A stretch of 63,882 nucleotides of DNA, counting the filler, from Licmophora abbreviata (taxonomy: Eukaryota), in NCBI GenBank assembly GCA_900291995.1. It is 12 parts of 12 records of this genome, joined end to end, with 100 filler letters (N's around TTAATTAATTAA, not from the genome) between each part and the next. Parts side by side here need not be neighbours in the genome. Positions count along the whole stretch, not along the records: positions 20,315 to 27,602 come from OLMU01000013.1; positions 27,703 to 35,840 come from OLMU01000014.1; positions 35,941 to 47,048 come from OLMU01000015.1; 9 more parts are not named here. The stretch is one strand, 5' to 3'. Made by a program: the position numbers and the translations under genes. Positions 2,912 through 57,601 of this stretch are shown here, piece by piece. How positions within the stretch are numbered: the stretch's first letter is position 1; each line of letters starts with the position of its first letter. The notes below the pieces were generated by a model. It was not told where the DNA came from. It did not search any database and saw only the letters and a program-made list of their open reading frames with translations.

Positions 2912-4657
2912 CTAGCTATCCCTTGAACGCCCGACGGTCCCCATTTCTACTTCTTGTCCTTCACCACCAGCGGGCTTGCCTTCATCGTCTTGCTTGGATA
3001 TCGTCAGATACGGATTCTCAGTCATGGGCCGAAAGCAGAGACCAGTTACCACATAAAATACCAGGGTTGCCAGTTCCGTCAAAAAATAGCGAATCCAAGT
3101 GTGCCGATAGTCTAGCATCCCAAATAGGTAGACCAGTATCCGGGTAAAGTAGACGTAGACTACCACAAGGCAATAGAAAGTCCGAAACATTTTGAGTTTC
3201 GACAACGTTCGAGAGTCATCCGTCGACTCCGTTTCAGTTGCAACGACCTCTCCTGTATCAGGATCCACTCGCTCGAGCGATGATTCGAGTGAATTGACTT
3301 GCCAGACAATTGGAATCAACACGGCACAACAACACAGAATATCGACAAGATGCAAGACGGCACTCCAGTCGTCGTAGGCACTTTCACCCTCTGTTTCATT
3401 TGACACCACGGCGATGGCCACGTTGTCAATCACCTGCAAAACCAACACCACGAGAATAATTTTCTTCTCTCGATCTGTCAAAAAGGGCTTGACAAAGCTC
3501 CACCCAGAGCCAATTAGGAGAATGACGGTGAAGAGAAACATGCCTTTCAAAAACGTCACCGAGTAGTATACTACCGACCAGAGATCTGCATGCCCAGACA
3601 GACGAATGTAATGATACCGGACGCTTTCAAATAAAATCGACAGTGTCTTGAGAATCAGAAGAATCGACATGAGATGGTGAATAGGGAACACAGTCGGTTT
3701 TGCCCTCCCGTCGCCAGAACTTAAGTGTCCATCGAGTCCCCCTTGAATGCGCCGAATATTGGAAATCCAGATAAACGTACACATGGCATAGCTGACAAAG
3801 AAGTAGAAAAAGACGGTTGGCAGTGGCATCTCTCCTGCCGTCAGGTATGACTCGTTGGTCAGGGCGTCAAAGTTCTTGTAATGAAAATCAAGCTCAAACG
3901 TTGTTCGAATCTCATGATGATCATCCTCCGCCAACCCATGCCTCGGACAGACTTGGTAGACTAGAATGTACAGCCCGTCCTCTCCAGCGACAAAGTTGTA
4001 CATGATATTGGCCACAGCGGTAGTGTCGTGCTTTTTTATCAGAGCAGTCCGATTGTTGCGCAGGGGGAGAAAGATTCCGTCCGTGGATGCAGCGGGAATG
4101 TCGCCCACGTCCATATATTCGTCGTCTTCAAACGCGTCGTCCTCGAAAAGAGAATCGTCCGAGGAACTTCGAAAAGCTTCGAAGGCACAGTGACTTGCAT
4201 TGCTCATGATTCTCTCCTGGTACTCCACAAAAGAACTCATACTCTTGAACCGCTTCAAGAGCAGTCCCGCCTCGTAGCGAGACAAGATTTCACTATCCTC
4301 GTCACTCATACTCATCGCATCTGCTCCTTTTTGCTGTTGCTTAGATCGCAGCTTCCAGCCTCCGTGAGCACGGGAGTGCTTGTGTCCCACCGTGAGCGAA
4401 AAGTCAAATACATCGAGTTCAAAGCAGCCACCTCGCAAGAACCCAAAGGGAGCACCAATCGGTCCGATGAAATGACGACTGTCTTGAGTCACGTGAAACG
4501 AATGCTTGAGCCCGCTTACAGAGGAAGGAAGAATTACCAACAAGACAATAAGAAGGACCAGAAACTGGGTCCATGGGTGAAAGGAACCCATCTTCATGAT
4601 GGTACCGATGGGTGACTTATCGATTCGTCTCTCAGATGAATGCGCCGCTTCTGTCAT
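2912..4657 (-). CDS. GPR107/GPR108-like (lung seven-transmembrane, GOST family) Golgi protein
   Basis: Signal peptide, PFGF..GG, YLTAGEMPLP, IHHLM, ILLIGSGWSFVKPFL.DREKKI, LVDILCCCAVL.PIVW, KLK.FR.FY..VV.YVYFTRI, FRP...NPYL. The true start may be a downstream Met (MKMG). Confidence 0.92.
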   Translation of the reverse strand: MTEAAHSSERRIDKSPIGTIMKMGSFHPWTQFLVLLIVLLVILPSSVSGLKHSFHVTQDSRHFIGPIGAPFGFLRGGCFELDVFDFSLTVGHKHSRAHGGWKLRSKQQQKGADAMSMSDEDSEILSRYEAGLLLKRFKSMSSFVEYQERIMSNASHCAFEAFRSSSDDSLFEDDAFEDDEYMDVGDIPAASTDGIFLPLRNNRTALIKKHDTTAVANIMYNFVAGEDGLYILVYQVCPRHGLAEDDHHEIRTTFELDFHYKNFDALTNESYLTAGEMPLPTVFFYFFVSYAMCTFIWISNIRRIQGGLDGHLSSGDGRAKPTVFPIHHLMSILLILKTLSILFESVRYHYIRLSGHADLWSVVYYSVTFLKGMFLFTVILLIGSGWSFVKPFLTDREKKIILVVLVLQVIDNVAIAVVSNETEGESAYDDWSAVLHLVDILCCCAVLIPIVWQVNSLESSLERVDPDTGEVVATETESTDDSRTLSKLKMFRTFYCLVVVYVYFTRILVYLFGMLDYRHTWIRYFLTELATLVFYVVTGLCFRPMTENPYLTISKQDDEGKPAGGEGQEVEMGTVGRSRDS

Positions 4658-4993
4658 GTTTCTCCATGGTCATAGTCTTTCGTTGTTTTTTGTTTTCAGA
4701 GCTCGAGAGCTCGGAAATCGGCCAAATGATTCATTCGAATCAATCGACTTGAACGTAATCGAATCGTTCGACTCTTCATGGATTATCGATCTCATTCACA
4801 TATATCTTCATTGATCTCTTTCACGAGTGAAAAGTTGAAACGTCGGATCTTGCATGCATCCGCGATTCGTTCCTTTCTAGCCGCCGTTGATCCAGCCCCC
4901 TCGCCCACAGTCTTGCTTTGATCTTGACAAGCAGCTCAAGCTTTCTTTCCCCTGTGTTCCAAAGAGACAGTTTCATACTTGCGAGACTTAATC

Positions 4994-5729
4994 ATGTGTT
5001 ATCCAACTGAGACGATGTTGACGGAGGCGAAACCTGCNNNNNNNNNNNNNNNNNNNNNNNNNNNNNNNNNNNNNNNNNNNNTTAATTAATTAANNNNNNN
5101 NNNNNNNNNNNNNNNNNNNNNNNNNNNNNNNNNNNNNGGCGAAACCTGCCCTCGTTTCGCCGTCCACGCCCTGCCAGGCACACGATACCATGCCGTTCGC
5201 GTCCAGTTGTGTCGCGGTCAACGAAAATTGTGAAACAAGCCAGAACGACGCAGTTGTCCCGCCCAGTATCTCTTCTGGGAATACCTCGACTGTGACTCCC
5301 CAGACGAAACGACTCAAGAAGAAGCGAAAAGTTCACTTTTCGAATGTTCAAGTCCGAGAGTACGCTCTGACCGTCGGTACCAGCCCTTCCTGTGCAGCTT
5401 TCCCGCTGTCACTGGACTGGAAGTACAGTCGAGATGCCAAAACCACCAGCATTGATCAGTACGAAGAGAGAAAACACCAGAAACGACTAGATGAACGAGC
5501 ATTCACGACAAGAGCCAAACCATCATTCAAACTTAGTCCATTGACACTTTCCGAGCGCAGGTGTCGCTTGTTGTGCATGGGCCTTACACGGCAGGAGCTG
5601 CAGCAACACGAGACACAACGCCGCATATCTCTGATCTCCGAGTGGGCTTACGGAAACGATGCTACTGGAGAACCGCGGTGCTTTCCCTTGACCCAGACCA
5701 AGACATTACTGAAGCACTACGTGGTATAG
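4994..5729 (+). CDS. Diatom-type hypothetical protein with an RVxF (PP1-docking)-like motif; spans the first gap
   Basis: KKKRKVHFSNVQVREYALTVGTSPSC..PLSLDW...SIDQYE. The 12-nt overlap across the gap joins ATG 4994 (MCYPTETMLTEAKPALVSP...) in frame to ORF 5190-5729. Confidence 0.75.
5038..5137. other. Artificial scaffold spacer
   Basis: 44 N + TTAATTAATTAA (stop in all six frames) + 44 N; flanks overlap by GGCGAAACCTGC. Confidence 0.97.
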
Positions 5730-22408: not shown

Positions 22409-24298
22409 CTATTTGCTCCCTACTTGATTTCTTTGTTCTTGCGTAAAGTAGCTTCCACCATCAAGGTGACCTGTAAAGAATCGTCCACAATGGTCATCCA
22501 GCAGATAGCAGCCGAACCGTGCGTGGCCCGCTGCAAGGCCGAACCGTTCGACACTCTTGACGATGGCAGGGCTCAACTTATCTTCTACGAAACCGCCTCT
22601 CGCCACCATTCTCAAGTTCGGGTCAAAGACAAAATCGCGGTAATGTGCTGTTTCACAGATGTGAGTATTGTCGTACCAAAACAACGTCGGCGTCAATGTC
22701 AACTGGTGCTTTCCAACAGCCGGCGGGTTCGTCTTGACCCATTCTTCTTGAAGAATACACTGCCAACATCCTTGATAATTCAATGCCAGCTGGTCAATAC
22801 TCTTGCGCACACTTTCTGACACCTGAGCATGTACCTCGTTGCTAGAACTTCCTTCAGGTCCGTAAAGACTGGAATCCAACTCGAGTTCAGGCGGTCGCAG
22901 CACCATGTCGCTCACCTCCTTTTGAGATTTCTTTCCGTATTTGGTAAGGAAAATGTCGAGGTATGGTAAGTTGCTGCGCATACTCATGCCCACGTACTTG
23001 ATCTTTTCCGATCTCTTCCACATAGCTTCAAGCGTTTCTGCTACTGGAGTCTGTCGCATGAAGGTGCGATCATGTTGAATTACACACACGTATGGCGTTT
23101 TGACGCAGTGCCGGAGCGCATGCCGTAATGCAAAGCCGTATCCACAGCGCGTCTCGAGCTCCTCGACTCTCGTGTTAGCAAAAGGAGAGTTTTCCGGTGT
23201 ACTGTTACAGAGTGCTCGAAGATTTTGTTTGAACTGTTCGTAATTTTCGGACTGCTTCCTGGTGGCAATGCCATTTCGCAATGCCTGCTTGGCATTGGTG
23301 TGTTTTCGAGTCACCTTTGATTCCTTATGTTCTTCTCTCACACGACATCCATCACAGACGATTACCTTGCGACACTTATAGGCGAAGCCTAGACCGGCGT
23401 GACGGAAAGAATCAAACGTGCGTTCCAAGAGTTCGGTGGACGGATGAGATTTGATGGGCGATGTCGTCACGACAATAGTGAGGACATTCTCCAATGGTGG
23501 CATCGGACCAGTTCTACGAAGCGACAGTTTTCCGACTGATTCGTGAACCAGGGCATCCACTTCATTCGAGGATGATCTGGTAGATGAAGTCTGCCTGGAA
23601 TTGGTTGCAGCGTCGTCATTTGGTGGTAAAGTGTAGAACTTAAGCATCAGGGCTCGATCGTCTGCTGTACAGCTGCTGGGCGATGCGATGCGACTCCGCC
23701 ACTTCCAAAGACACTCCTTCGATTTAACATAGAGACTATATGGCTCCATCCACAGATCTGTCCAATGATTTGGAGACTCCAGGGTCCAACAGTCTGGCAC
23801 TCGTCGCTGTGGACAGTTCAGATGCTGAACCAGAGGAGCGGAGATTGGCAACTGGGCTACAAAGTAGGCATCATCATCAATCTCCTGAGAGCGAGATTCA
23901 AAGGTCGTTACGACGCGCTCCGTACATAGCTCGGGACTTCGAGGTGCAGTGCATGGATACTCTTCGATGGACACGTGCTGGGGTCGACGACCAGTCGTCG
24001 CTACGAAGCGACGCGCTATTTCGGAAACAGTCTTGGGTATCGCGCTATCGGTTGAGTGTTCTCCTTGAAGAGAAAAACGCTGCACCTTTCGTCTGATAGC
24101 AAATCCCTCAATCATCCATGAATCTCCGTCTAATGAATCTAGCAGAGACATTGCTTCATCAGGTGACATGAAGCTGGGAAGTGTCTCCAAACCGTTCGGT
24201 ATCGGTACGAGCGGATTCGACACCCGGATTTTCCCGCAGTTTTCGCCGTCCATTGGGACAACTTTCCACTCACTTTGTCCGTCCAGGAATACAGTCAT
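22409..24298 (-). CDS. Fusion of a degenerate AlkB-like domain and a GT-A (GT2-like) glycosyltransferase domain
   Basis: N-half: GL..LPSFMSPDEA..LL, RRKVQRF, PQHVSIEEYP, EPYSLYV...C.W.W...I. C-half: LTIVVTTSP..SHPST, KVIVCDG, G.GFAL..AL, TPYVCVIQHD. Confidence 0.7.
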   Translation of the reverse strand: MTVFLDGQSEWKVVPMDGENCGKIRVSNPLVPIPNGLETLPSFMSPDEAMSLLDSLDGDSWMIEGFAIRRKVQRFSLQGEHSTDSAIPKTVSEIARRFVATTGRRPQHVSIEEYPCTAPRSPELCTERVVTTFESRSQEIDDDAYFVAQLPISAPLVQHLNCPQRRVPDCWTLESPNHWTDLWMEPYSLYVKSKECLWKWRSRIASPSSCTADDRALMLKFYTLPPNDDAATNSRQTSSTRSSSNEVDALVHESVGKLSLRRTGPMPPLENVLTIVVTTSPIKSHPSTELLERTFDSFRHAGLGFAYKCRKVIVCDGCRVREEHKESKVTRKHTNAKQALRNGIATRKQSENYEQFKQNLRALCNSTPENSPFANTRVEELETRCGYGFALRHALRHCVKTPYVCVIQHDRTFMRQTPVAETLEAMWKRSEKIKYVGMSMRSNLPYLDIFLTKYGKKSQKEVSDMVLRPPELELDSSLYGPEGSSSNEVHAQVSESVRKSIDQLALNYQGCWQCILQEEWVKTNPPAVGKHQLTLTPTLFWYDNTHICETAHYRDFVFDPNLRMVARGGFVEDKLSPAIVKSVERFGLAAGHARFGCYLLDDHCGRFFTGHLDGGSYFTQEQRNQVGSK

Positions 24299-24683
24299 GG
24301 TTCAAATCTGGTGTTTGGAAGGAGAAGAGTCCTTATTGCGACTTTCCATGCTCCTGTGGCGCACACGTCGTTGTGTATCACGATGATGTGCATCGATTTT
24401 CGAACATTGTGCTGGGTGTTGCGCGCCAAAACAAATTGTGTGGACGGTGAACAGACGATCCGTCTGTATGGCGACCGGGAGGACATTGTGACATTGATTG
24501 AGCATTTTGACATTATCATATTTTCCCGCGTCTGGAAAATCAAAAGAAGTCCGTTGGGTGTAAAATGGCAGCCGCGATAGTGACGACGTGTGGTGGCGGC
24601 GATCTCACATCTTCTCTACTATGTTTCCCCAAATGCCTGTCGCCTCTGTTCTAGTATATCATCCCCACTTATAATTTATAAAG

Positions 24684-26651
24684 ATGACAGAAAATGTAGA
24701 GGAGAATGAGATTCGATACCACCATGAGTTTACGCAAGCTGAACTCGACCAGCTGATGTACCACTGGGACGACAATGCCGCCCCAGTTCAAGAGTACCAC
24801 TACATGAAGAAGAAGTGGCAAACACCTGATGCTGTGATTGGTGGTAAAAAGATCGTGGGAAGTGGTGAAGACGAAAAGCCGGAGCCTCGCTCGGAACGAG
24901 ATGGCGTTCGTGAAAATGCCGTCGATTCGGGTAATCGAACCGCTGTCGACTTGAACAAGGACGCACCGGCAGACGAAGAGCCGGTACCTTTGTGGCTTGA
25001 CACGAGTAGCTCAGCTATTGTAGTTGAATTCTACGCTGCATGGTGTGCGCACTGCCAGCACTTCAAGTCAGAGTACATTAGCGTCGCTCGGGAAGTGACG
25101 CGCAGAGCCATTGGCACCCAAATCCACTTTCATGCAGTGTCCTGTCAGCTCTACCGGGAGGTCTGTCGAGCCTATAATATTGACGGATTTCCGGTAGTAC
25201 TGGGATATGCAATGGGAGAGTCAATCGAAGACGTTGGCTGGGAGCTCAATCCTAGAGGGAAAGACATGACCGCCGAATTGATTGCAAACGCCCTATCATT
25301 TACACTGGCACACGAGCCGAAAGATGTGCACGCCTTGAACTTCAGCGACAGCAACGACGAGCGTGCGCACCAGCGTGTGTTAAGCGAAATGGGGCACCAA
25401 GCCGCCGCAAAGAAAAGAGATTGGCATGAATCTCTATCGAATGTCAATGATGCGTTCCACAATGGAGCCGTAAGCCTAGCGTTTGCACTGAAGACTGGTG
25501 TGTTCATGAAGCGAGAAGGTGTGCTGGAGGAAAAGCGGCGAATCGCGCTACGAGACTTTCTCGGGTTAGTGGACTGGGCAATGCCACCGCAATGGCATGT
25601 CCGAGAGATGGTACAGGAGGTAATGGCGCAGCTCGACAAGATTGTGGGAGATCCATCGTTGCTCGTGGAAATCGTGGAGCGGCATCAGTCGCGAAATGTT
25701 GAGCCCGATTTGTGGGGCGGCATCAATGCTTCCAATCGGAGCCGACGAAACGTAAGCGGACTCGGTAGTGGCTCTCGTTTTCCGAGCGATAGAATACTCA
25801 ATGACCCCGAAGCCGTTTTTTGGAAGAACAATCGCTGGACGGAATCTTGTACCCACTCAGAGCCGGGCATGGGCTTTACATGTGGTCTCTGGAGTCTCTT
25901 CCACTGCATCACCATAGGTTCATCTATGCCGTCTCGACAACTCTATGGCTTTCAGCGTGCGCAGCTTACCTCGCCTCGGGACGTGGCCGAGATCATCAAG
26001 CGCTTTATTGGCAACTTTTTCGCGTGTGATGTGTGCAGATGGAACTTCTTGGATATGTACGACAGATGCGAACACGATCGTTGCCACAGGCTAATTGGGA
26101 CTATCCCTGCTCTACAAGGAGGAGAGCCGGAGCTGAAGAGTAGTCGCGAGCTTGCCTTGTGGCTATGGGAAACTCACAATGCCGTCAATGTTCGCGTAAT
26201 GAAGGAAGCGACCGAACGAGAAAACCGCCATCTTACCAGCGAAGAACGAGAGGCCGCAGCGTTTCCCACGGTATCAATGTGTCCGGCATGCTGGCACGAT
26301 GAGACCATGACAAATTTCGACGAAAAGGCAGTGTTTGCGTTTCTCCAGAGCCGGTACTGGTAAGACGATCGTACAGAGCGATACTATATGATTCGCCAGA
26401 TAACCTGCACCATGACTTACTTCTATTGCTGCTGTTGCCCGTCACTACTCTATCGGCACAGGCCCGAGAACAAAGCTAGAAGCCGGATCCCAATTCTTCC
26501 AGTGAGACGCCAACTCGCGATTGCAACCTCTTCGAATACATACAAGATCACTGCATTTACGATCTTTCTGATCTCTCTTGCCATTTTAACCCAACTTTGC
26601 CGTCGATTCTTGAAACGTATGTCATCCAAGAATCCAAGAAAGAGCGTTTAG
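24684..26651 (+). CDS. QSOX: QSOX-like sulfhydryl oxidase, paralogue 1 (Trx + Erv/ALR + TM; intron 26360-26461; N-terminus uncertain)
   Basis: VEFYAAWCAHC; GFTCGLWSLFH; FFACDVC; LWLWETHNAVNVR; FP....CPAC. The terminal exon encodes a TM helix. Confidence 0.9.
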
Positions 26652-26666
26652 TCTTCTAATCGGTAG

Positions 26667-27518
26667 TCACTCGTTATCGTCGGTCTCCGCTTCCTCATCC
26701 ACTCGCATCGCTGGTACCCCGACATACAGGCGCTTTAAGTCGGACCACCCTCTCGGCAGCGTATAGACATGTTCATCGTCATCGCTGGCCTCAGGCGTCA
26801 TATCGGTCGTCTCCAGTAATACCTCCGTAGACACTTTCGTGGGATCTAGTGTCACTTTCCAGACATCGCAATTTCCTAGTTTGAATGACATACCCAACAT
26901 TGCCTTGAAGAATTGCGAGTGTCCGACAAGTGCAATCGTAGATTCAGACTGATCCACCAACCAGGCCTCGAGCTTTTGAATCCTCACAGCGAGTGATTTG
27001 GTATTCCCCGGAACCCACTCCAAGGGTGTCTTTTCCAGAAGCAAGTCAAGCTCAACGACTCGCCCAACAGAAGGATCCTTAGTATCGGGAGCTGCACAGC
27101 CAATCATACCTTCGGACGTTTGTTTGGCACGCTGCAGCGGCGAGTGCGCAACCAACTGCACCCCGACCTGTTCCAGAAAGTTGTCAGCTTTCAGCGCTTC
27201 AGCCACCTGATCAATCTGAGCCAGTCCATCCACACTGACCGCTGAATCCAACTGAGCTGGAATATTTAAGAATTGAGCGGCAAGCTTGGCATCGGTACTA
27301 GAAGGCAGACTGAATTTGCCGAGACTTTTGAAGCATCGACCAAAGGAAGCGAGTTTGCGATTCTCTTCACTCTCAGCGTGCCGAATCAAGTAGATTGTCT
27401 TGCTCATTGCAATTGTCGTACTGTAACGACAGGTCCGAGGAGCTGAGGCAACGAAGAGCAGAGACGACAGAAGCACGATGGACAACAGTGTACACACAAG
27501 CTGCCGCTTCAATGTCAT
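26667..27518 (-). CDS. Histidine phosphatase / phosphoglycerate mutase-like protein with N-terminal signal peptide
   Basis: IYLIRHAES, HSPLQRAKQT, LLLEK, IALVGHSQF. Confidence 0.88.
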   Translation of the reverse strand: MTLKRQLVCTLLSIVLLSSLLFVASAPRTCRYSTTIAMSKTIYLIRHAESEENRKLASFGRCFKSLGKFSLPSSTDAKLAAQFLNIPAQLDSAVSVDGLAQIDQVAEALKADNFLEQVGVQLVAHSPLQRAKQTSEGMIGCAAPDTKDPSVGRVVELDLLLEKTPLEWVPGNTKSLAVRIQKLEAWLVDQSESTIALVGHSQFFKAMLGMSFKLGNCDVWKVTLDPTKVSTEVLLETTDMTPEASDDDEHVYTLPRGWSDLKRLYVGVPAMRVDEEAETDDNE

Positions 27519-27602
27519 TGCTCAAAACTCGAGAATGATGATGACGCGAGCACACACAACATTCTAAATTCCAAAACTGCCGATCCTCCTGGTTTAAACA
27601 AA

Positions 27603-27702
27603 NNNNNNNNNNNNNNNNNNNNNNNNNNNNNNNNNNNNNNNNNNNNTTAATTAATTAANNNNNNNNNNNNNNNNNNNNNNNNNNNNNNNNNNNNNNNNNN
27701 NN
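27603..27702. other. Artificial scaffold spacer
   Basis: 100-nt N/TTAATTAATTAA linker. Confidence 0.97.
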
Positions 27703-27840
27703 TATACGTAAACATTTATGATACTGAGAAACCATTCTTTAAAAACGTCATTAGGCCTTGCGCGTTTTCTTTGTGGAGCTTCGGCATTTCGCGCATGAAG
27801 GAGATGCGGTCACAGTTTCGATCATGACGACACCAGCACC

Positions 27841-29826
27841 ATGACGACAGAAAGGAAGCCCCGATCACTACTGCTGACCTTATTCTTCTCGCTCACTACT
27901 CACATTAATGCACGCCAGGAGGATGTTAGAAGTAAATTTCTCTATCTGGGAAATCCAGAGGCGACCAGCATCGTCTGGGACTATCAGCATCACATGCATG
28001 CGCCATCTCACGAGACATTGACGAGCCGATCCCAGGAGCACGAAGCGGCTGTCGATGCGCTACTACGAGAAAGTGAGCATACCGAAACGGAGAAGGCTGA
28101 CACCCTAATTGCTACCAGCGAGAACTCGTCGTTTGCACCAACTGACCCGAGACCCTTCTTTTTGCGCCAAGAGTACCCCGCAGCTCGTGTGGTCGAGTGA
28201 GTTCTATTTATGTGTCATCTGTACAGGTAGACCACGTCGATGCGACGAACCTGCACTTACTTCATGAATGTCCAATCTTTCTACAGGTTCTACTCGCCGT
28301 GGTGCGGTCACTGTCAAAACTTTGCACCTCATTACATTCAAATGGCTCGTGAAGTCTTGCAACGAGTGTTGTCTTCAAATGGTTCTGGTGTCGAATTTTA
28401 TGCCGTCTCATGTTCCGAACATCATCACTTGTGTCAGCAGCAAAACGTTAGTGGCTATCCTTCAATACGAGCCTATCATGCGCGAAGTACTGAGTATAGT
28501 ACCGTGCAGCCCTTCACCCTGGAAAGCATCGACCATTCACTGCAGCTAGGCATCGATACCACGCCAGTGGCCCCTGCTGGCGGCCAGGACCAACACATCG
28601 CAGGTTTATCGTCGTCAAAGACAGGCATGCTTGCACTAGGCGACGGTGACGACACTCGGTCTCATCCTAGTAAGATCGATATCTTGGGCGCCACCCTGGA
28701 CGGCTATCGACGGACTCGCACGGACGTTTTCCGGGATGCAGCACTGAGCTTCACTTATGCCATGGAACATCATATATACTTGAGTGATGAGCAGCCTCTA
28801 TCATCGGAAAGAGCTGCGGCATTCTCCGAGTGGCTTGACTTGTTGTATTGGACTCTACCCCCGACATGGATGCTGCATGCGCTCATTCATGACTTGCGAC
28901 GGAATCTACAGCAAGTAGTACAGTCCAAAATATCGCTACTGGAACTAGTGCACAAACATCACGAGGTTGTACACGAAACTAGCACGACTGGTAGTGATGA
29001 CAAGGTGCAGTGGAGCGTAGCATGCGGTGGCAACAGCGGCTTTGGTTGCGGCCTGTGGAGACTAATGCACGTGGCCTCTATTGGGGTAGTGGAGCGACAC
29101 AGAGCTGTGTTGGGGGCGAGGGACCGTGTCAGTACAAGTCATGCTGCTGAAACAATGTATCACTACGTGTATCATTTCTCCTCGTGGTGTCACGAATGTC
29201 GTGAGATCTTCTTACAACGCTATGAAATGTGTGCCTATAGAAGGTACAAGCGCTTTCAGCAGCCCAAAAGCAAGATGCCTCCGTCCGATGAGAGCTGGAA
29301 AGAGTTTCCGATGTGGCTATGGCAAATGCACGGCGGTATCAACGAAGCGATAGTTGGAACCCGAAGCAAGAAGAAGAACAACCGGAAAGCGACAGGAGTA
29401 GAATTGTCGGCGGCTAGATGGCCGACAGAGACAGCCTGTCAGACTTGCCAGAAGCGGAATGGTCGATGGAGCGAAGCCGACGTGTTCGCATACCTAAGGA
29501 AAGAGTACTGGTAAGAAGAGTGCCAACTTGGAATGTCGGCGGTTGTTCGAAGCTGAAGGCTGACCATTCTTTTGTTTACATCGGCCAGGCCTGGAGGTGT
29601 ACAGAACTTTCGATACGTCGTGCTCGACAAAAAAGATCGATCGAAAGAGAGAGAAGATGATTCTTCAAGCGGTATGGCTGTTCGTGTGTTTGTTGCCATC
29701 GCACTTTCAGTCACTGCCGTGTTGGTTTATGCTAGCGCAAGTCGTTCGTCGCAGCGGGTCCGCATTCGGGCGACTGGTCGTCACAAGAAGTTTGACGATG
29801 GCCCCAATGGCCCCTTTCCACCGTGA
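27841..29826 (+). CDS. QSOX: QSOX-like sulfhydryl oxidase, paralogue 2, divergent Erv domain (introns 28197-28286, 29511-29588)
   Basis: Signal peptide; spliced VVEFYSPWCGHC; GFGCGLWRLMH; WCHEC; MWLWQMHGGIN; WP....CQTC; TM followed by TGRHKK. Confidence 0.88.
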
Positions 29827-29885
29827 GAGAAATACCAAAGAAAATGCAATCTATCAACGGAACTACCTTTAGGCCACCTCCTACC

Positions 29886-31729
29886 CTATGGGTCAAGGTC
29901 TCCAAACTCATCGACTTTCTTATGTCGACCGCTTCGAGCAAGCCGATTCTTTTCATGAAAAATGTATACAAGAAATGCGACAGCTGAGACGCACAGAAAA
30001 CCCAGTATGGCGGGGAAACCATCACTTTGGGGCTCTTTGACCTTGCGATGTACTGTGTCTTCTGGGGTCGGCTCTGGTGGTGCTGTCAGGCTATTCGGAG
30101 CTAGTCGTTTTCGCATGGTGGCTGAGTTGAGCCCATCGTCTGGCCTGTCGACAAGAAGCAAAAGAGATTGACATCTGTAGATGTGAGCAGGACGCAGCCG
30201 CAAAGACTAGCCCCACAATATGTATACCAATTCATCAATGACTTACCAGTATTCTAGCTTGAGATATTGAAAGACATGCTCTTCGTCCCATGAGCCATCC
30301 TTCCCCCAACAAGTAGGACACTCGTGTCTCAATGGCCAGTGAGCATTTATTTCGTCCTGCTCATTCGTTGCCCGTCCGTCTCGCTCAGCTCGTTCCTTCA
30401 TCAGTCTAACATTGACGGCATTGTGCGTCTCCCATAGCCAAAGAGCCAGCTGCTTCCAATCTTTCAACTGCCCGTGTTCTGTGGCTAACCGAGTGCATCG
30501 ATTGTGGGCGCAGGCGTCGTAAGCAGCTAGAAAGTTGACTCGACATACTTCACAGCCGAAAAAATGTTCAATGAAATCGCGAAGCTTGTCTGCCGCCCTC
30601 ATGGGTGCTATTGTGGTCCATTCATTGGACATTTTGTTAAACTCGACAACGCCAATCGACATGACATGAAAGAGCTCCCAAAGTCCACACGTGTACCCCA
30701 TACCCTGCTCTCCGTGCGTACACGTGGGGCTCCATTCCCGCACTTCGGGTCGGAAGGGGTCGACGAACTTGAGTAACTCGTCTTCGCTCTGGATCGCGGC
30801 CTCGTGATTGTCTCGTATTGCACTTATTTGCCGATGAATTTTCCACGTCGGCGGCATGGTGTCGTGAAGCATGTTGATCCAGTTCAGGAATGCCGACTTT
30901 CGCTTCTTCTCCAGGGGCCCGCTCGACATGAAAATCCCCTGCCGCAGGGCAAAATCAAACGACAGAAACGCATCGGAGAACATTTCTTCTTTTGTTCTGG
31001 CCAGTCTCAAGGATACTGCCTTCATGGCTTCACTTGCCTGCCCGCGCTTCGTTTTGGAATACTCATTTCGTTCTTGGGCTGTCAGTCCATCCATCTGCAC
31101 TCCAAGCGTCTCCAGAACATGGAAAGGGTGCAACTCTGTGGGCGACACGTCGGTGCCATTGATTGATCCTGCCGCGTATACTTTGATCGTCGGGTACCCG
31201 TGCACGCCCACTGCCCGACAGATATCTCGATGAGGTACACAGCTAACAGCATATACATCGACATGCACCCCAAACCGCGTTGCCAACATGTCCAGATCCT
31301 GCGCAAACTTGATATACGAGCCTTTGAAGTGCCGACAGTGTCTACGGAGGTAAGGGAATGAGTTGGTTGAGTGACGAAGGTATCATATCACACGGGAGTC
31401 GAGTGGATACTCTGTGATCTTTCGTCTACTTACGGGCACCATGGCGCATAAAACTCGATGATTCGATGGCCAGTGTTGGAAGATGACAGAAAGTAAGGAA
31501 GTTCGACCTTTTTCTTGCTAGAGGATCCACTCCGCTCCTTCTCCTCAGATACCGAAGGCTCTTCCCTTTCCACCGATACCAGATCAGTTTCATTGCCAAA
31601 ATACTCATGAATCGGGGCATACTCTTCAGGTGGCAAAAGCGCATACATGTAGTCGGGATAATCGGCTCTCGCCATGCTGAGCATGATCACCACCAGGGCC
31701 CCGAAAAACAAAATTAACAACAGTCCCAT
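29886..31729 (-). CDS. QSOX: QSOX-like sulfhydryl oxidase, paralogue 3 (introns 31433-31342, 30246-30145)
   Basis: Signal peptide MGLLLILFFGALVVIMLSMARA; spliced IEFYAPWCPHC; GYTCGLWELFH; FFGCEVC; LWLWETHNAVNVR; CPTC; TM followed by SGRHKK. Confidence 0.9.
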
Positions 31730-32096
31730 GGTAGGGAGAGCAAGTTCGCCGTCGTTTGTCGTTCTCCTTTTCTTCCGCTGCCTCTTGGCGTTTGGTGGAG
31801 CCGTAGTACGCCTATTCGTTCTTCTCTCCGTTGTTAGTGGAGGCGCTTCCACTCCACCTCCGGAGGGCAATCGACGCAGCACAGGCTCAACAATCTTGAC
31901 GAGCGCGGATGAGCAGCGACGAGAATCGGTCTAGCGACGGTGGCTCCAATAGCATCTCAACGGAACGCCATGGTCATTTTTGAGTTTTGAGGTTTTGCTT
32001 TTGAAGAGACCAATTACCGCGCGCTCTCAGCTAGTCGCGTCGCGCGCTCGGTAATATCGCCCTCGTGACGTAAACGACTCTGGGGAAGTTATGTGT

Positions 32097-33925
32097 CTAC
32101 ACAGCTACATCACTTTCAAACTTCTTGTGGTGCCCGCTGAGCTCTCGTTGCATCTTTTTTGCATGTGCAATGTACGCGGCGACAGCAGCTGCCCCTCCGA
32201 TTGTTAGAAAAGGCAGGGCTATGGTTGCAGCCGAGCTGCGATCTTGTGCAAAGTAGTAATCGTCGTCTCCCTCCAATAATGACTTTGTAGTACTGAGATA
32301 GCTTCGTGTCTTTTCTGATGACTCGTCGTCAGGCCTGTACGAACAATATACGAATAGAAAGAGGGTAAGACCAATAGATACACACTTCGTTCACAGCAAC
32401 AACAAAACAGTACGGAACTCACCAGTACGTCAGTCGAAGATACATGTAGATGAACTCTTCGTTCCATGACCCATCAGGTAACCAGCATCGTGGACAATCG
32501 GCTCGAGAAGGCCATTGGGCGTCGGCTTCATCTTGTAAGGTCGTCCTCCGTCCTTCTCGCACAGCACGCTCCTTCATTAGTCGTACATTGACTGCATTGT
32601 GTGTCTCCCACAGCCACAGTGGCAGCTCCTTCCAGTCGGCCAACTTTCCCACTTTGCGTGTCAATCGATCGCATCGATCAAATGAGCACGAATCGTAGGC
32701 CTTCACAAAGTTGTGAGAACAGACTTCACAGCCAAAGAAGTGTTCTACATAGAGCCGCAGCGTGTCGGCAGCCCGCATGGTGGGTACCGTCGACCACTCG
32801 TTCGCCATTTTGTTCCATTCCACAATGCCAATACTCATAATCATGAAGAGATTCCACAACCCACAAGTGTACCCCATGCCCTCTTCTCCATGTGAACAGC
32901 TAATGCTCCATTCTTCCTTCTGCGGTTTGTGCGGATCAATCAGGGCCAGCAACTTGGCTTCGTCCTTGATGGCATCGTCCATGTGATCTCGAATGGAATT
33001 GAGTTGACGGTGAATTCTCCAAGCCGGTGGTAACGTATCGTGCAGCAGATTGATCCATTCCGTAAACGTTCTTCGTCTCATGATTGCAAGTGGTCCGGGT
33101 TTCATAAAGACGCTTTGACGCAAGGCCATGTCAAACGACAAGAAGGCGTCCATGTAGATATCGTCCTTGGTGCGAGCGACGTGGCCATGATCTGCACCAT
33201 CATGACTACCTTTTGCTTGTCGCAAGACAGATTGGGAACTTTCCACTGTGTCAAGCTCACTGGCAGCTCCAATCTCATCGAATTGAATTCCAAGCATATC
33301 TAGAACCATGAAGGGATGCAAGTCGTGATGCTTGACACGTGTGCCGTTCAAGGATCCATCAGGAATGACGACAATCCATGGGAACCCATTGACACTGGAA
33401 TGTTGACACACTGGATGGTGCACCTGGCAAGAAACGGCATGCACATCCACGTGACTACCCGAGTGAGTTGCCAATGAAGTGATTTGTCTGGCGAACTGAA
33501 TGAATTGGTCCTTAAAGTGCCGACAGTGTGGACACCACCTGCGGGCAAGAGCGAGACATTACGACGCATGAGAGACGCGGCGGCGGATGACAACATCGTA
33601 TCCGATCAATGACGTACGGTGCGTAGAACTCCACAACACGATGCCCTGTAGGGGAGGTAAGGAACTCAGGTAGGCGAAGCTGTTTCGTTGCGTTGGCTCC
33701 TGCTGTCGTCGCATTCACCAGACCTGTGGTCTCCTTATGCGTGGCCTCAGCAGGCGATGCCGACTCGACGGGCAAAGTTTCGTTCAGTAACAGTTCGTGG
33801 ACTGGAAAGTATTCTTCTGGCTGCATAATTGCGTACATATATGGTGGGAGAGAACAAGCATATCCCGCAAGGAGAACCAGAAGGATTGCGCGATGGAAGG
33901 TCGAGCGAGCTGATGATGATACCAT
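32097..33925 (-). CDS. QSOX: QSOX-like sulfhydryl oxidase, paralogue 4 (introns 33617-33539, 32422-32335)
   Basis: Signal peptide; spliced VEFYAPWCPHC; GYTCGLWNLFM; FFGCEVC; LWLWETHNAVNVR; CPRC. The last exon (not in the ORF track) encodes a TM and SGHHKKFESDVAV*. Confidence 0.9.
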
Positions 33926-34257
33926 GATGGTTTTCCGGCAAGATTTTGGCGCCAAACTTGAATGCCGCGTCTGTCGCGCAAAAAAGTATTGGATTGCCCC
34001 TTTTATCGTCTTTACTCGTCTCGGATAGTCCCAAGAAGCTTGTGAGACGGAGACCTCTGTTCTTCTCGCTGGATCGATCACAATCTTTCCCTCTTTGTCA
34101 CCATGACCACCATGACAACGATGTGGTCGGATTCTATATCATCTCGCGTCGTCCACTCGTGACTAAGTTTTGGCGAGCTCGAGAGTTCGTGGTGAGGAGC
34201 CACAAATTTCAGTTTGGTGCTAAAACAAGGCGAAGACGGCCCACTAGTATTACGAGA

Positions 34258-36890
34258 CTACACAGAGTGCTTCTTCTTTCCACCCATGGCCGTGCGACCC
34301 ACAACCATGGCCGACCTGGCCATTCCTTGGACGCCTCCGCTCGATCCAGACGACAGCTTGTCTCGTTTCGAATAGGCCACCGCAAGTGCCACGAAAAGAA
34401 AGAGCCACACGTAGCGGAAACCATACACATCGTAGTCTTGTTTCTGGTACTTCAGGAGTCGATCCAGCTTTGGATCAGGCGACGCCCAATACGTTTTCTC
34501 CAAGAAGAGGAAGACGCCATCTTCGTTCCATGACCCGTCGCTTTCAAAGCAAGTCAGACAAGATTCGATGGAAGGAAACAGCACCTTGACCTCGTCTTCT
34601 AGCTCAAACCTATGCTCCGCCGCGGTTTTCGGCAGCGCCATATTCTTTTGGCGGGAGGCCTTCTCGCGAGCCACACGCACGCTCACATCATTATGGACTT
34701 CCCAGAGCCACAGACCCAGCTGCTTCCAGTCCTCAGGGGTGGCTTCCGAAGCGTCAGATGTGAGTCGATCGCATCGACGGAATGAACATTGATCGTACTG
34801 ACCAATGAAATGGTCTCGACACTCGGTGCAGCCAAAAAAGTGAGCCATGTACTCACGTAGCACGTCGGCAGCTTCCATTGGAGAAAAGATGCGCGTATCG
34901 ATGTCAACCACGCCAGCGTCGCGAAGATTGAGTCCTCCACCATGCTCCGCAACTCCAGTAAAAGCAACGTGCAAAAGTTTCCAGAATCCACACGTGAATC
35001 CCTTTGTTTTTCCATTATTTGAGCAGGACGAACTCCAGTTGTTGTTCCAGTACTTGTGTTTGTTCAGAACCTTATCCAAGGCGTCTGGACTCGTCGAAAT
35101 AATGTCGATATGAGAAAGGAGATCATCGATCGTCTCGTGAAGACCCCACTCCGGAGGAAGCGAAACGCTCAGCAACTCCAGCCACCCCTGCAAAGCGGCT
35201 TTTTTCTTTGGCGTGAGTGGATCTCTGGTCATGAAGACACCGTGACGCAAACCAGACGTGAACGAGAGAGTAGCGTCGAGAATGAGCATTTCTTCTGAGG
35301 TCATCTTGACAAGTCTCTTTAACACGGGCACCTTCATCGCCACCTTCCCTGCGACAGAACGATCGCGTACATCCTTCTTCAACGGCATACCCTCGCCCTT
35401 CTTGATGGGAGAGTGAACAGAAGCGCCTGCGCCCAGTCCCACCGCGCCTTTCTTCAATTTCAAACCTTGCTTCTTTCGTTCCTTCGACATCTTGGCGAAA
35501 AACGATTCCATGCGAGCATTGTACTCGGAAGTGCCCGGTAAGTTCTTCTTCATCGTCTCCGTAATTCCCGGCACTGGCGGCTTGCCGTTCGAGGCATCAC
35601 GAGCAGGGTTTCTCAATCGCATACGTCCACCCTGCTTCTTCTTATTCTCGAGTCGAGTCTTGCGGTCGAGAATGATTTGCTTCCACTTGTCCATGTCTTT
35701 CTGCGACAATTTCGCACGCGCCGCTCCAACGGGCAATTTCCCGACGGAACCTCCCAATGATGGCTGGGGCATGTCCTCGGTCGACACATTCTCGGGGTCC
35801 GAGTCACTTTCAGGTTCGTCTTCCTCGTCCGCCCCTGTATNNNNNNNNNNNNNNNNNNNNNNNNNNNNNNNNNNNNNNNNNNNNTTAATTAATTAANNNN
35901 NNNNNNNNNNNNNNNNNNNNNNNNNNNNNNNNNNNNNNNNGTTCGTCTTCCTCGTCCGCCCCTGTATCGACAACCAAGGGCGGCATAGCGATATCCAATG
36001 TTTCCACTGTGTTGGCAATCATCTTATCGTATGTCCCCTTGATGGGGTTCCCTTCTTGCTCAGCCTCCGTGGATACGGGTTGATCTTCCTCGCCACTTTC
36101 GCCGTCTTGCGTTTCCAATTCACCCGACTTTTCTTCACTCGTCTCGTCGCTAAGATCATCTTCCTCAACATCACTTTCCTCATCCTCAACATTACTTTCC
36201 TCATCCTCTCCTTCACTCTCCTCTTCTTCTTCTTCCTCCTCCTCCTCCTCCTCCACACCTTCTTCCCCCGTCAGCTTACGCGATGATTCTTCCCCGACTG
36301 CTGCCTTGTCCAACCCCAGTTCCTCCATCAACATCTTCTTTCCCAATTGCGAGTGCTTCAGGTACTTTTTATCTTTACTATTGGCGCGAAAGACATTTAC
36401 ACTGGGATAGCCTCGCACGTCGTAGTCTTGACACAGATCGCGATGGACATTGCAGGATACGGCATAAAACTCGACCTCGGGGTGTTCCTGCGTCACGTCC
36501 TTGGCCAACTGAACGAACTTTGGTGCATATGCAATACACGCACTGGTGAGAATAAGAGAAATGAAAGAGAGAGAGAGATCGTTGAGAGACACGATAGTAT
36601 GCTCTCTCCCAATGACACCGTCGAGGCCACACACACCGCAACGAATCACGCGTTCCTTCCTTCCACACTCACCCACACGTCGGACTGTAAAATTCCACAA
36701 CACGCGGCGCCGTGGACTTCCAAAAGTCTACTCCCGTTTGGTACTCCACCACGGGTCCCGTGCGGGAGGCATACAAAAAATCTCGTGTATCCGTGTTGGA
36801 TTCCAATGGCGACGCCAAGACCAAAAGACACGCGGCCAGCAGAGTGACGAGGCTTCTTCTCCACAAGGAACGAAGCATCGTGAAAGTCAT
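34258..36890 (-). CDS. QSOX: QSOX-like sulfhydryl oxidase, paralogue 5, with long acidic and basic linkers (intron 36672-36543; spans false gap 35841-35940)
   Basis: Signal peptide; spliced VEFYSPTCGAC; GFTCGFWKLLH; FFGCTEC; LWLWEVHNDVSVR; CLTC; TM. A 27-nt overlap across the gap gives continuous DTGADEEDEPESDSDPENVSTED. Confidence 0.88.
35841..35940. other. Artificial scaffold spacer between overlapping contigs
   Basis: 35814-35840 is identical to 35941-35967. Confidence 0.97.
36160..36262 (-). repeat. Coding low-complexity GAG/GAA tract (poly-Glu) and a short tandem ES[ND]VE[DE] repeat in QSOX5
   Basis: EEEEEEEEEEESEGEDEESNVEDEESDVEEDD. Confidence 0.8.
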
Positions 36891-43766: not shown

Positions 43767-45871
43767 TCATCCAAGCTGCGCCAGCTGAGACATAAAGTCA
43801 GACGGATCCAACAGTTCTGTACTTCCGTAACTGACTCGTCGACGTTCGTCTGCCACCATTTGCAGGTTCTGGTACTCGGCGTAGCACCCGCCGCCGATCA
43901 CAAAGGCAATAACTTCTCGTACTGGCGCTCGCGTCGTGTTGCGCAACGAATTGACGTCGACGTCGCCCTTGACCTTGGGATCGAGATACAAGTAGTCTTG
44001 ATCCTCGCTATTCGGCTTCATATCACAAAGATTCTCCACCACTTGTGTCGCGCGATGCTTGTGAATCTTTCCCAGCATGGTCCCCATCTTCTCCGTAGCC
44101 TTGGCCAACAGTCCGGTCGCCTGCGTTGTCGCGCGTGCCATGAAGCTGGACAGCATGTCCGGATTGCTCGTGCTATCCTCGCTCGCTACCATTTCCTGTA
44201 AATCCGTTGCAGCCGGAATCATATGCATGGTGCGTAGCTGCTTGATGTACTGAATCCCTCGCGCTCCTACCGCCAGGTGTTCTTTGCCGGCCTTGTCCAG
44301 CAGTTCACGATCTCCCGTATCCTCATTCGCAAGTCCCTTAGACTCCAGGGCATCCTTCATGGCCATCGCCACCTCATCGACTTCCGCGCTCTTGGCCGTC
44401 GTGGACAGCATGTACACCATGACAAGTCGGACCTTATCTTGCACATTTCCCTTGGTCGGATCCGTGACTAGTTCCAATACCTTCTGTTTGGCCTGCGCCA
44501 GGTCCTTCTTGTAGTAACCAGTCGCCAGACTGCTTTCGAGCTCATAAAATTGTGGCACATCCCGTGCTGCCACCTGTGCCATGACAGCCTGAAGAATAGA
44601 CGTGTGTACTTCCAATTGCTTCTTGCGATCCAAGAGAGCCGGCAAACTGTCCACTGCAGTGGCGAGTTCATTGGCGCCAGCATTGTTGTTGCTCACGATG
44701 GGATCGGTAGTGTTGGCACCACGCGATCGAATCTGCTGTTCCTTCTGCGTCACTTGCTGCAATTCGATACCATTACTTTCAATGGCCTCAGGGAAGGGTT
44801 GGAACTTATGTTCCGCATAGAATGGATCTTGGTCTGGATCCAAGTCGTACTTTTTAGTGACGGTCTTTTTGGATGTCTCTCCTCCGACCTTGACTGTGAA
44901 CTCGACACGGTTGCTCGAATGCTTGAGTAGATCATCGATCAATGCCTGATAGGTACTGCTGTGTTGAATGGGAGTGACGAGATCGGCATTGCGATCCAAG
45001 AGAACCAGCAGGGGACGCGTTTGGGACGACTTGGTGGCCCGCAGCAGCGTGGGGTGTTCGGCAATCATGCGATTCAGCTTGCGTGCGACCATTTCGGGGG
45101 CTCCGCCCTACACACAATCAACAAGAGAGAAAGAGAGAGTTGATTTGCGTGAGAGTGACGTCCTTCGCACATTGTTTCAGGTCACTTCATAAGACACACC
45201 TTGGGACACCGAATAATGGGGACATAGTTCAAGGATGCCACGACACTAAAGAGTCCATAGGCTACTTGCGTCATGCAGTCTTCCATACTCTGCTCGGTCG
45301 CACTTGGATTGTTGTATAGCGCATACGAGTTGGCCTTGTGCAGACTGAACAAGTTCTGTTCCAAGCAGACATAGTCCAAGTACAAGTCGTGGACACTCGC
45401 AACGCATTCGAGCGATCCCGACTGCACGACGAGTCGAGCAAACTCTTCCATGAGACTGCGATCGAGTTTGGTACAAAAATTCAAATGAACCTTCTGATAC
45501 AAGCCTTTACTGCAGTCGGAAGCAATCAATTTAAGATTCTGTGGTGTGGGCATGCAAAAATAGATTGCAGGGACATCGGGGATTGGTTCTCGTTCGCTGC
45601 TGTTGAGCAGCAAATGCAGGGTGACTCCTCGCTTGCGCAGTTGCGAAACACTCATGAGCGGTGATATGATGCTGCGGCAGGCCTGATCGTAAATTAGAAT
45701 TTTCCACTGATTGTGAGAGGACCCGGCCGGTGGAAGGTGATAGTCCTTGTCGTCATCGGCACCTCCATTGCTACTACCACTAGGAAGTAAATCCTCATCG
45801 TGAAAGGCCAGCATCTTGTGGACGGCGTGCAGTTGCGCCGATTTTAGCGAAGCAGCAGTCGAGAAAGCCAT
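43767..45871 (-). CDS. SLY1: Sec1/Munc18 family protein Sly1/SCFD1 (intron 45199-45108)
   Basis: WKILIYD, ISPL.SV..LRK.GVTLHL, REPIPDVPAIYF, PIIRCPK|GGAPEMVA, RPLLVLLDRN.DL, YQALIDD, FVIGGG.Y.EYQNL, YGSTEL. Confidence 0.95.
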
Positions 45872-46044
45872 TTCTGAGACTAGAGAATGAGAAAAAAGAC
45901 TTCAACGCAGCGAGAGAAAGAGGATGTTGGAAGATCAGAAGAAGAGTCGTCTTGTGCAAGCCACAGGAGGACGACGGCATCGCGAGACTTGGCTGGCTGC
46001 GCCTTGTCGCTCTCTCCCCGTCATTTTTGCCGGCGGTCATAGCA

Positions 46045-46151
46045 TTTTGATTTTTCAATTTTTGATTCTTCAAACTGTCCAAAATGCAAAATGACTACTT
46101 TCGGTCGAAAGACAGACAGAAATTCAAAAATCAAAAATATCACTGACGTCA
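46045..46151. promoter_or_regulatory. Imperfect 16-bp inverted repeat plus a TGACGTCA palindrome in a bidirectional intergenic region
   Basis: TTTTGATTTTTCAATT (46045-46060) versus AATTCAAAAATCAAAA (46121-46136), 15/16 complementary; TGACGTCA at 46144-46151. Function is inferred only. Confidence 0.3.
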
Positions 46152-46301
46152 AATGACATTTCCAACAGCGCGCCCTAAACTTTTTGATGGCCATCCAAAA
46201 TCCAAACCTCCCGAACCATGATCGGCGGCGTCACACACATCGGCGTTGAGGGGACTGCATCAAGAATCTGTAGCCAGCGGCTTACTTGTTGACTTTTTTC
46301 G

Positions 46302-47048
46302 ATGCGAGATCAGACCAATAGCGCAGGCGTCGTCCTGCTGACACTAGTATGGCTTCCATGTTATCTGGTTTTGCTGGTCCAGTCTTTCTCGCCGGTTGCT
46401 ATTCCGAAATTCCGCACGGCCTTCGGCGATTCAACAAGGATACCACCATCATCCAGATCGTCACTTTCCATGGCATCCATCACCCCGTTCGAAGCAGATT
46501 TCTACTCCGATGGCAGTGACGACGAAGATGATGATGAAAGTAATCCGTTCTCATCCTCGTCATCATCACCCCTTAAGGTCCCTCCCGACACGAAACTGGT
46601 GCTTGGCTTGAACAAGTACTCACACGACACTAGTCTCTGTGCAGCCTGCGCCGAGACAGGCCGTGTTCTATTCTCATTGAGCAAGGAACGACTCTCACGA
46701 CGCAAGCACGATGGTGGGAATGTGGCAACGCTCGTAGAGACCTGTCTAGAGCAATTGGATCTCCCGTCAGCCGAGGACAGTATAGAAAGAGTTGTCATCA
46801 ACAATCATCATCATCGTGTACTACCGGTCATTGAAAAAGATGCGTCACACATGGAATGGGAATGTGGATTGGGATAAACGGTGGAACTGAAGATGGGTAC
46901 GACGACGAAGACAATTTACTGTCGCATGCGGAAAAACATGAACTGTCGCATCATTTGGCACATGCCTACAGCGCCGCCACTCAAGCGCCCTTTCAGACTG
47001 GTCTCGTGGTCATTATGGACGGCAGTGGGAGAAACTTACCGAGCGATG
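46302..47048 (+). CDS. Carbamoyltransferase (NodU/CmcH/TobZ family), N-terminal part, probably plastid-targeted; two apparent frameshifts; truncated by gap
   Basis: VLGLNKYSHDTSLC, SKERLSRRKHDGG, HHLAHAYSA, VIMDG; signal peptide with VQS-FSP cleavage motif. Confidence 0.82.
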
Positions 47049-57474: not shown

Positions 57475-57601
57475 TTTTAATCAAGGTAACACGACGCGAT
57501 AGGGACATTCGATGTCCAGCTCTGTCGACATACCGGTATGGATTTTATCCAAGTATACTTAGTCCTTCGTCAGTCTGCACCTAGCGCCGCGCGCCGTTCT
57601 T

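Follow-up and report, generated by a model that had tools for sequence, protein, structure and literature searches.

QSOX sulfhydryl oxidases are defined by two domains, a thioredoxin (Trx) and an Erv domain, and a signal peptide is typical of the family without defining it (PMC3616962; here and below, statements on this 2013 paper refer to the part of its text covered by our analysis). Their defining features are a Trx CxxC, a CX6C loop, a pseudo-Erv region, a backstop loop, an Erv CxxC and a C-terminal CxxC, and the established relay runs from the Trx CxxC to the Erv CxxC, to flavin adenine dinucleotide (FAD) and to O2. Because the enzyme is otherwise tied to the animal extracellular matrix, the same paper regards the occurrence of QSOX among unicellular algae and diatoms as a complication still to be settled. 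It places a QSOX duplication deep in Bacillariophyta, describes CPHC as typical of stramenopiles, and lists two QSOXs in Phaeodactylum tricornutum (XP_002176967.1, XP_002177501.1) and four in Thalassiosira pseudonana (XP_002286688.1, XP_002286687.1, XP_002286843.1, XP_002286139.1). Here we analyse a 63,882-nucleotide stretch of the diatom Licmophora abbreviata (GCA_900291995.1; "the window", whose numbering is used throughout), in which five intact single-Trx QSOX genes occupy positions 24684-36890, copies 1 and 2 on the plus strand and copies 3, 4 and 5 on the minus strand. We consider it likely, at roughly 80%, that they form an ancient, partly conserved tandem cluster of single-Trx (plant/protist-type) QSOX and not an exotic local burst.

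Among the closest described enzymes is Trypanosoma brucei QSOX (3qcp/3qd9), which shares with the diatom copies one Trx with CxxC, CX6C loop and cis-Pro, the pseudo-Erv/Erv pair, the backstop loop, and the Erv and C-terminal CxxC (features from PMC3616962). Identity to T. brucei and other protist or plant single-Trx QSOXs is about 20%; unlike these, diatoms have at least four deep subfamilies, one of which (clade D) carries a very long charged interdomain linker. Vertebrate QSOX1/QSOX2 (4p2l, 3t58, 3lli) give the best structural matches of our copy-1 model and are assumed to use the same redox relay, whereas animal enzymes have a second, non-catalytic Trx and only two paralogs occur in craniates (PMC3616962). 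Drosophila (up to four QSOXs) and Phytophthora infestans (five, with two consecutive accession pairs) resemble diatoms in having several paralogs with diversified CxxC motifs in the auxiliary copies, by independent duplications (PMC3616962). Since that paper lists four copies in T. pseudonana and five in P. infestans, five copies per genome are not unprecedented and copy number alone is not new. Its diatom QSOXs are members of this family and stem from that deep duplication, and XP_002176967.1 is a clade-C ortholog of copies 3 and 4; in the part covered here, the paper mentions neither a physical cluster nor a linked phosphatase, and reports no A-E subfamilies or signal-less form. Our literature search, with most subscription papers outside its scope, found no published account of this cluster. 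As enzymes, these proteins belong to a known type. What appears to be new is their division into subfamilies, the conserved linkage to a histidine phosphatase and the clade without a signal peptide, with the proviso that Additional file 2 of PMC3616962 may already show diatom subfamilies. An apparent one-off array thus resolves into defined orthologous subfamilies A-D, plus an unlinked subfamily E.

Five intact QSOX genes in one array

We located catalytic motifs by six-frame scanning of the window and spliced the gene models with GT-AG introns. The array is laid out as follows, with the Trx, Erv and C-terminal CxxC of each copy given in that order:

24684..26651, plus strand: QSOX copy 1, clade A; exons 24684-26359 and 26462-26651; 621 amino acids; CAHC / CDVC / CPAC; no signal peptide, a C-terminal transmembrane (TM) segment, then a basic tail ending R-K-x-x
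26667..27518, minus strand: histidine phosphatase (Pfam His_Phos_1), hydrophobic N-terminus
27603..27702: artificial 100-base contig linker between the histidine phosphatase and copy 2
27841..29826, plus strand: QSOX copy 2, clade B; exons 27841-28196, 28287-29510 and 29589-29826; 605 amino acids; CGHC / CHEC / CQTC; signal peptide and TM segment
29886..31729, minus strand: QSOX copy 3, clade C; exons 31729-31434, 31341-30247 and 30144-29886; 549 amino acids; CPHC / CEVC / CPTC; signal peptide and TM segment
32097..33925, minus strand: QSOX copy 4, clade C; exons 33925-33618, 33538-32423 and 32334-32097; 553 amino acids; CPHC / CEVC / CPRC
34258..36890, minus strand: QSOX copy 5, clade D; exons 36890-36673 and 36542-34258, the second interrupted by a linker; 791 amino acids; CGAC / CTEC / CLTC; signal peptide and TM segment
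35841..35940: artificial 100-base linker within copy 5; its flanks overlap by 27 nucleotides

Positions 24684 and 36890 are the ATGs of copies 1 and 5, and all five spliced models are open from end to end. The first-pass annotation, made from the sequence alone, had placed five QSOX-type genes here with these Trx motifs, an Erv CxxC, a distal CxxC and a C-terminal anchor in each, and a histidine phosphatase as the only interruption; the spliced models and Pfam agree on every one of these points. Hydropathy indicates a signal peptide in copies 2-5 (10-mer values 2.2-3.2). Introns interrupt the Trx motifs of copies 3 and 5, and the interdomain linker of copy 5 is long, first acidic and then basic. 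Protein identity is 49-53% between copies 3 and 4 and 25-37% for the remaining pairs. The first introns of copies 2-5 (28196, 31434, 33618, 36673) are all in phase 2 and fall within seven codons around the Trx CxxC, at offsets of −6, +1, −2 and +1; copies 3 and 5 coincide while the sisters 3 and 4 differ. Stop codons of the two convergent pairs lie 15 bases (26651-26667) and 59 bases (29826-29886) apart, so their 3' untranslated regions must overlap.

Both Pfam domains, Thioredoxin (PF00085) and Evr1_Alr (PF04777), match in each of the five copies, three of the ten matches falling just below the curated cut-offs (Evr1_Alr of copy 2 at 23.4 bits; the exon-clipped Trx of copies 3 and 5 at 23.2 and 23.1 bits). 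A profile search likewise matched QSOX over both modules. The copies contain the Trx CxxC, the CX6-8C loop and the cis-Pro site, and all five retain both backstop cysteines and the C-terminal CxxC. An AlphaFold model of the copy-1 core (mean predicted local distance difference test score, pLDDT, 83.1) found rat, mouse and Trypanosoma QSOX as its best Foldseek matches in PDB (E 3e-11 to 2e-8), with a template modelling score of 0.72 by target length against the human pseudo-Erv/Erv fragment 3lli. The helical pseudo-Erv region preceding the Erv domain is seen in the model for copy 1 and by alignment only for copies 2-5. Identity as stand-alone Erv1/Erv2 or as protein disulfide isomerase (PDI) was rejected because all five copies carry both domains. 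A separate two-exon Erv-domain gene lies on another contig of the same genome (C2959; loci L092 and L094) and is probably an ordinary mitochondrial Erv1.

The array genes are spread over three contigs (C13, C14 and C15). Its single acknowledged spacer had left the linkage of copy 1 dependent on scaffolding; there is in fact a second one, inside copy 5. Joining the copy-5 flanks over their 27-nucleotide overlap produces a single open frame with a length matching full-length orthologs, and this linker is an assembly artefact. All 11 N runs of the window are identical 100-base artificial linkers, so window genes that cross them will look broken; the flanks of the linker at 5038-5137 likewise overlap, by 12 nucleotides. 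At the linker 27603-27702, a contig from an independent marine DNA run (X3) extends beyond the right flank into letters that match the final 9 bases on the left, a short bridge in which only about 11 letters of the left side are shown. Contigs from four DNA runs were short and of low depth, and none spanned the array stretch. The real gap is probably close to zero. Together with a locus that carries A, phosphatase and B on one contig (L035, below), the bridge largely answers the concern about linkage across this spacer.

The subfamilies are shared with other diatoms

Homology searches with copies 3, 1, 5 and 2 gave differing top sets. We built trees of the core regions with 383, 48 and 19 rows, the 48-row tree being a quick one and the 383-row tree omitting 29 of 412 proteins that lacked an anchor motif or sufficient length. 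In the 19-row tree, clades A, B and D are supported at 100/98-100, each with members from other diatoms, and a grouping of all five copies as monophyletic is rejected (at a cost of 368 log-likelihood units; approximately unbiased test, p-AU 1.1e-63). The same clade pattern recurs in the 48- and 383-row trees. Copy 1 groups with Attheya (clade A), copy 2 with Cyclotella HJC23_005054 (clade B), and copy 5 with Cyclotella HJC23_005052, Odontella, Skeletonema, Seminavis and Nitzschia (clade D). Copies 3 and 4 stand together among homologs from Attheya, Mayamaea and Phaeodactylum (clade C), copy 3 being 42% identical to the representative of the Phaeodactylum XP_002176967.1 cluster. Clade-D orthologs are close to copy 5 in size (Seminavis 827, Nitzschia 754, Cylindrotheca 778 and Cyclotella 826 amino acids; Odontella and Skeletonema are partial). 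The phylogeny that the first-pass annotation had proposed thus separates copies 1, 2 and 5 and joins 3 with 4, which agrees with its view of an old array in which 3 and 4 are close and the others very divergent.

Rejection of the five-copy grouping, together with clades shared with other diatoms, indicates that the subfamilies predate the centric/pennate split. Comparison of copies 3 and 4 shows saturation at synonymous sites (proportion of synonymous differences, pS, 0.84) and a nonsynonymous divergence (dN) of 0.47, a pattern expected for old genes under purifying selection. Only the 3/4 pair is later, copy 4 being a duplicate of copy 3. Two clade-C proteins of about 1100 amino acids (P0157, P0162) have one Trx and, in tandem, three pseudo-Erv/Erv-like modules with partial degeneration in the later ones; this single Trx with three Erv-like modules excludes fused calls of neighbouring QSOX genes. 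Another candidate, P0178, proved to be a multi-Trx PDI-like protein and was discarded as a QSOX.

Parts of the cluster recur in other diatom loci

A metagenome contig scan returned 228 confirmed matches, and the best 80 of these yielded 79 loci. A second clade or a phosphatase ortholog was present in 16 of the 79, with at least two clades in 11 (one of them only partial and two from the same organism) and a phosphatase in 8. The recurring arrangements, with strands, are:

L010, L015: A plus, phosphatase minus; the same arrangement as in the window
L035: A plus, phosphatase plus, B plus; on one contig
L061: phosphatase plus, B plus
L046, L047, L049, L057: B and C tail to tail, as in the window
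L042: D minus, then at a distance A plus, B plus; its B is 65% identical to Cyclotella
L024, L041: phosphatase minus, C plus, D minus
L027, L076, L083: C plus, D minus

The phosphatase-C-D locus L041 is 99% identical to Phaeodactylum XP_002176967.1. In Cyclotella, D (HJC23_005052) and B (HJC23_005054) carry locus tags two numbers apart and lie on a single contig of 791,228 bases. Homologs of C and D also share 11 identical longest-contig sizes of at least 5 kb (among 46 and 49 values), against a null mean of 0.11 and a maximum of 2 in 10,000 jitters, and homologs of A and B have two more such sizes in common. Gene order kept across the centric/pennate split is reportedly uncommon, as judged in the 2008 Phaeodactylum genome comparison. 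Two of the four T. pseudonana QSOXs have consecutive accessions (PMC3616962), which suggests adjacency there as well.

Part of this linkage is regional. Synteny in L027, L028, L043 and L084 extends to unrelated genes of the window (at 43.7-46.9, 57.6-58.9, 20-24 and 2.9-4.7 kb), which suggests a wider conserved chromosomal neighbourhood around the QSOX genes; such regional synteny would explain part of the linkage. At gene level, the window genes 43770-46874, 57585-58862 and 2915-4669 have homologs beside QSOX genes in L027 and L084.

Loci resembling those of gliding (raphid) pennates have fewer cluster members, not more. B was absent between phosphatase and C in all four loci that carry both, each of them nearest to raphid pennates (L024, L028, L041, L043), and A was not seen in the three phosphatase-plus-C loci with enough flank. 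Limited, word-based searches found no named raphid protein in clade A or B. From these contigs, A and B appear to have been lost from the locus in raphid pennates. Phaeodactylum, a weakly silicified and genetically tractable diatom, keeps C, D and the phosphatase. Since its C-D pair and phosphatase are adjacent, a single locus deletion would make a QSOX role in diatom wall or secretory biology directly testable.

Catalytic and FAD-contact residues differ between clades

The FAD-contact residues of helix 1 (Trp/His) and helix 4 (His-Asn-x-x-Asn) are intact in copies 1 and 3. In copy 2 the first FAD Asn of helix 4 is Gly, found in 1 of 36 clade-B proteins, and one structural Cys is Tyr; in copy 4 the helix-1 FAD His is Met (1 of 181). 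Copy 5 carries a Ser in place of the second helix-4 Asn, as do 44 of 60 sampled clade-D proteins. The His that follows the Erv CxxC is replaced by Asn or Ile in copies 1-4. Copy 3 is the most canonical of the five.

In clade B, Ser replaces the first Trx Cys in 9 of 25 aligned proteins, and the first Erv Cys is kept in 28 of 36. This frequent loss of catalytic cysteines points to a relaxed or accessory role, and clade B may tend towards a weakened or non-catalytic one, C and D probably being the core enzymes. A sixth QSOX paralog (clade E) lies unlinked on another contig of the same genome (C4137; L007:263-2284). It has SxxC in its Trx, no Erv core CxxC and no signal peptide as predicted; given the two altered motifs, it is probably non-catalytic and likely a pseudo-enzyme. 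The clade-E ortholog of Odontella (transcript protein P0538) keeps the Erv CxxC and is signal-less as predicted.

Most clade-A proteins lack a recognisable signal peptide

Copy 1 has no hydrophobic N-terminus, and its single hydrophobic segment is C-terminal. Scoring a signal-like start as a hydrophobic N-terminal 10-mer of at least 2.0, we found one in none of 13 Met-started full-length clade-A proteins, as against 12 of 16 clade-B, 88 of 104 clade-C and 11 of 13 clade-D proteins. A transcriptome open reading frame of clade A that is marked complete (P0507, 654 amino acids) also has a signal-less start, and another clade-A ortholog starts at the same place in its spliced and unspliced forms. 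No one-intron upstream signal exon scoring at least 2.0 was found in the window or in five of six loci within up to 600 bases (281-600 available); the sixth, L018, gave ambiguous candidates. None of the 12 cysteines, four structural pairs among them, has been lost in clade A, and 11 of 20 of its proteins end in R-K-x-x, which we take to resemble a cytosolic endoplasmic reticulum-retrieval tail. In the clade-A genes of L012, L013, L021 and L042, a long extension accompanies a signal peptide. Glycosylation sequons are depleted in clade A (ratio 0.49), but equally so in the signal-bearing clades B (0.3) and D (0.5), so these ratios do not discriminate topology. Taken together, the sequences leave clade A between a cytosol-facing tail anchor, an unseen exon and unconventional import. 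A signal-less, anchor-only QSOX, if true, would extend the known topology of the family. Long N-terminal extensions occur in the clade-A genes of L012:99-2603, L013, L021, L029 and L042, with a signal peptide where the start is visible, and that of L012 gives a weak EF-hand match.

Proposed origin and function

Starting from the observed gene structures, motifs, fold, clades and linkage, we infer activity, compartment, division of labour and substrates as follows. An ancestral diatom QSOX would have duplicated locally into subfamilies A, B, C and D before the centric/pennate split. The copies would then have diverged to 25-37% identity, staying linked with a secretory-type histidine phosphatase in many, not all, lineages; the present genome keeps all four subfamilies and duplicated C once more. 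Judged from family knowledge and the intact motifs, the Trx CxxC would oxidise a substrate dithiol, and disulfide exchange would carry the electrons to the Erv CxxC, docked at the backstop, from where they would travel via FAD to O2 with release of H2O2. Copies 2-5 are predicted to be type-I membrane enzymes of the secretory pathway or cell surface that act on secreted proteins; given their signal-plus-anchor layout, their substrates would be secreted or surface proteins.

Several observations weigh against this account of an ancient, partly conserved cluster of relay enzymes. Clade C is not one supported clade once centric members are added. No second cluster member was found in 12 of the 18 loci of at least 8 kb, so the cluster is often broken; some of the matches are close to the end of a contig, and the loci include near-duplicates. 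The missing signal peptide of copy 1 does not fit a simple secretory role. Finally, Trx-to-Erv transfer was not seen with a recombinant single-Trx QSOX from a plant (PMC3616962), so intact motifs do not guarantee the relay.

Alternative explanations

The idea of a local expansion, as the first-pass annotation had put it, survives as an ancient tandem set. An expansion confined to this organism's own line is very improbable: the close relationship of copies 3 and 4 and an intron at the same Y-W/P junction (between W and P) in copies 1-4 would fit it, but the rejected five-copy monophyly refutes it for copies 1, 2 and 5, and orthologs of clades A, B and D are present in Attheya or in centric diatoms, so that it holds only for the 3/4 pair. 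We think it unlikely, too, that the array is partly an assembly artefact with copy 1 unlinked, or partly composed of pseudogenes. Five genes on three contigs joined by artificial linkers invite that suspicion, as do the unique FAD-contact changes in copies 2 and 4. Every frame is intact, however, which speaks against the pseudogenes that the first-pass annotation had considered, and copies 3 and 4 still share half of their protein sequence despite saturation at synonymous sites. The 27-nucleotide overlap at 35841-35940 and the bridging loose end at 27603-27702 argue against misassembly, as does the recurrence of the neighbours A-phosphatase and A-phosphatase-B in L010, L015 and L035.

A rival reading, less likely than not, is selection on the arrangement itself. 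Tentatively, the four QSOXs, the phosphatase and the glycosyltransferase-like neighbour could be a co-regulated functional module that matures cell-wall proteins (frustule, girdle, organic casing) or adhesive proteins. The first-pass annotation had raised a related conjecture, cross-linking of cell-wall, adhesive or EPS proteins, and such a role would be speculative here. The phosphatase stays beside a QSOX in 8 of 79 loci despite varying orientation, most copies have a hydrophobic N-terminus, the stop-to-stop gaps are just 15 and 59 bases, and PMC3616962 suggests that QSOX serves particular targets and not bulk folding. Against such a module stand the homologs of unrelated window genes in QSOX loci, the broken cluster in 12 of 18 long loci, and the raphid-like loci without B between phosphatase and C. 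Proteomics of T. pseudonana valve silica deposition vesicles (PMC9894196) is a further point against it: a keyword search of its passages and five text supplements found no sulfhydryl oxidase, Erv1 or QSOX entry, with seven "thioredoxin" rows unmapped to sequences. Somewhat less probable is that clade A (copy 1) is a tail-anchored QSOX with cytosolic catalytic domains, working outside the secretory lumen. The signal-less starts, including complete P0507 and the shared start of spliced and unspliced forms, the lack of an upstream signal exon and the lone C-terminal hydrophobic segment would fit it, whereas the 12 kept cysteines suit an oxidising lumen, the R-K-x-x tail implies the opposite topology, four loci have a signal peptide and extension, and L018 is ambiguous. 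We regard as doubtful the broadest proposal, an undescribed ancient clustered diatom QSOX system in which clade A, perhaps with unlinked E, would be a signal-less, tail-anchored disulfide-forming enzyme on the cytosolic membrane face; the lumenal members and the phosphatase clustered with them would act in maturing secreted wall proteins, and the raphid locus would apparently have lost A and B.

Neighbouring genes

The orientation of the phosphatase varies among the eight loci in which an ortholog lies beside a QSOX, and a hydrophobic N-terminal stretch is seen by eye in six of them. To the left of the array lies one further gene:

22412..24301, minus strand: protein conserved among diatoms, weakly glycosyltransferase-like; belongs to the wider conserved block

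It has no Pfam match at E <= 0.1, and Atlas leads, at 0.85 only, point to PLOD-like glycosyltransferases. By eye, its N-terminal part may resemble a degenerate AlkB-like fold. Orthologs of this gene occur in loci L028 and L043.

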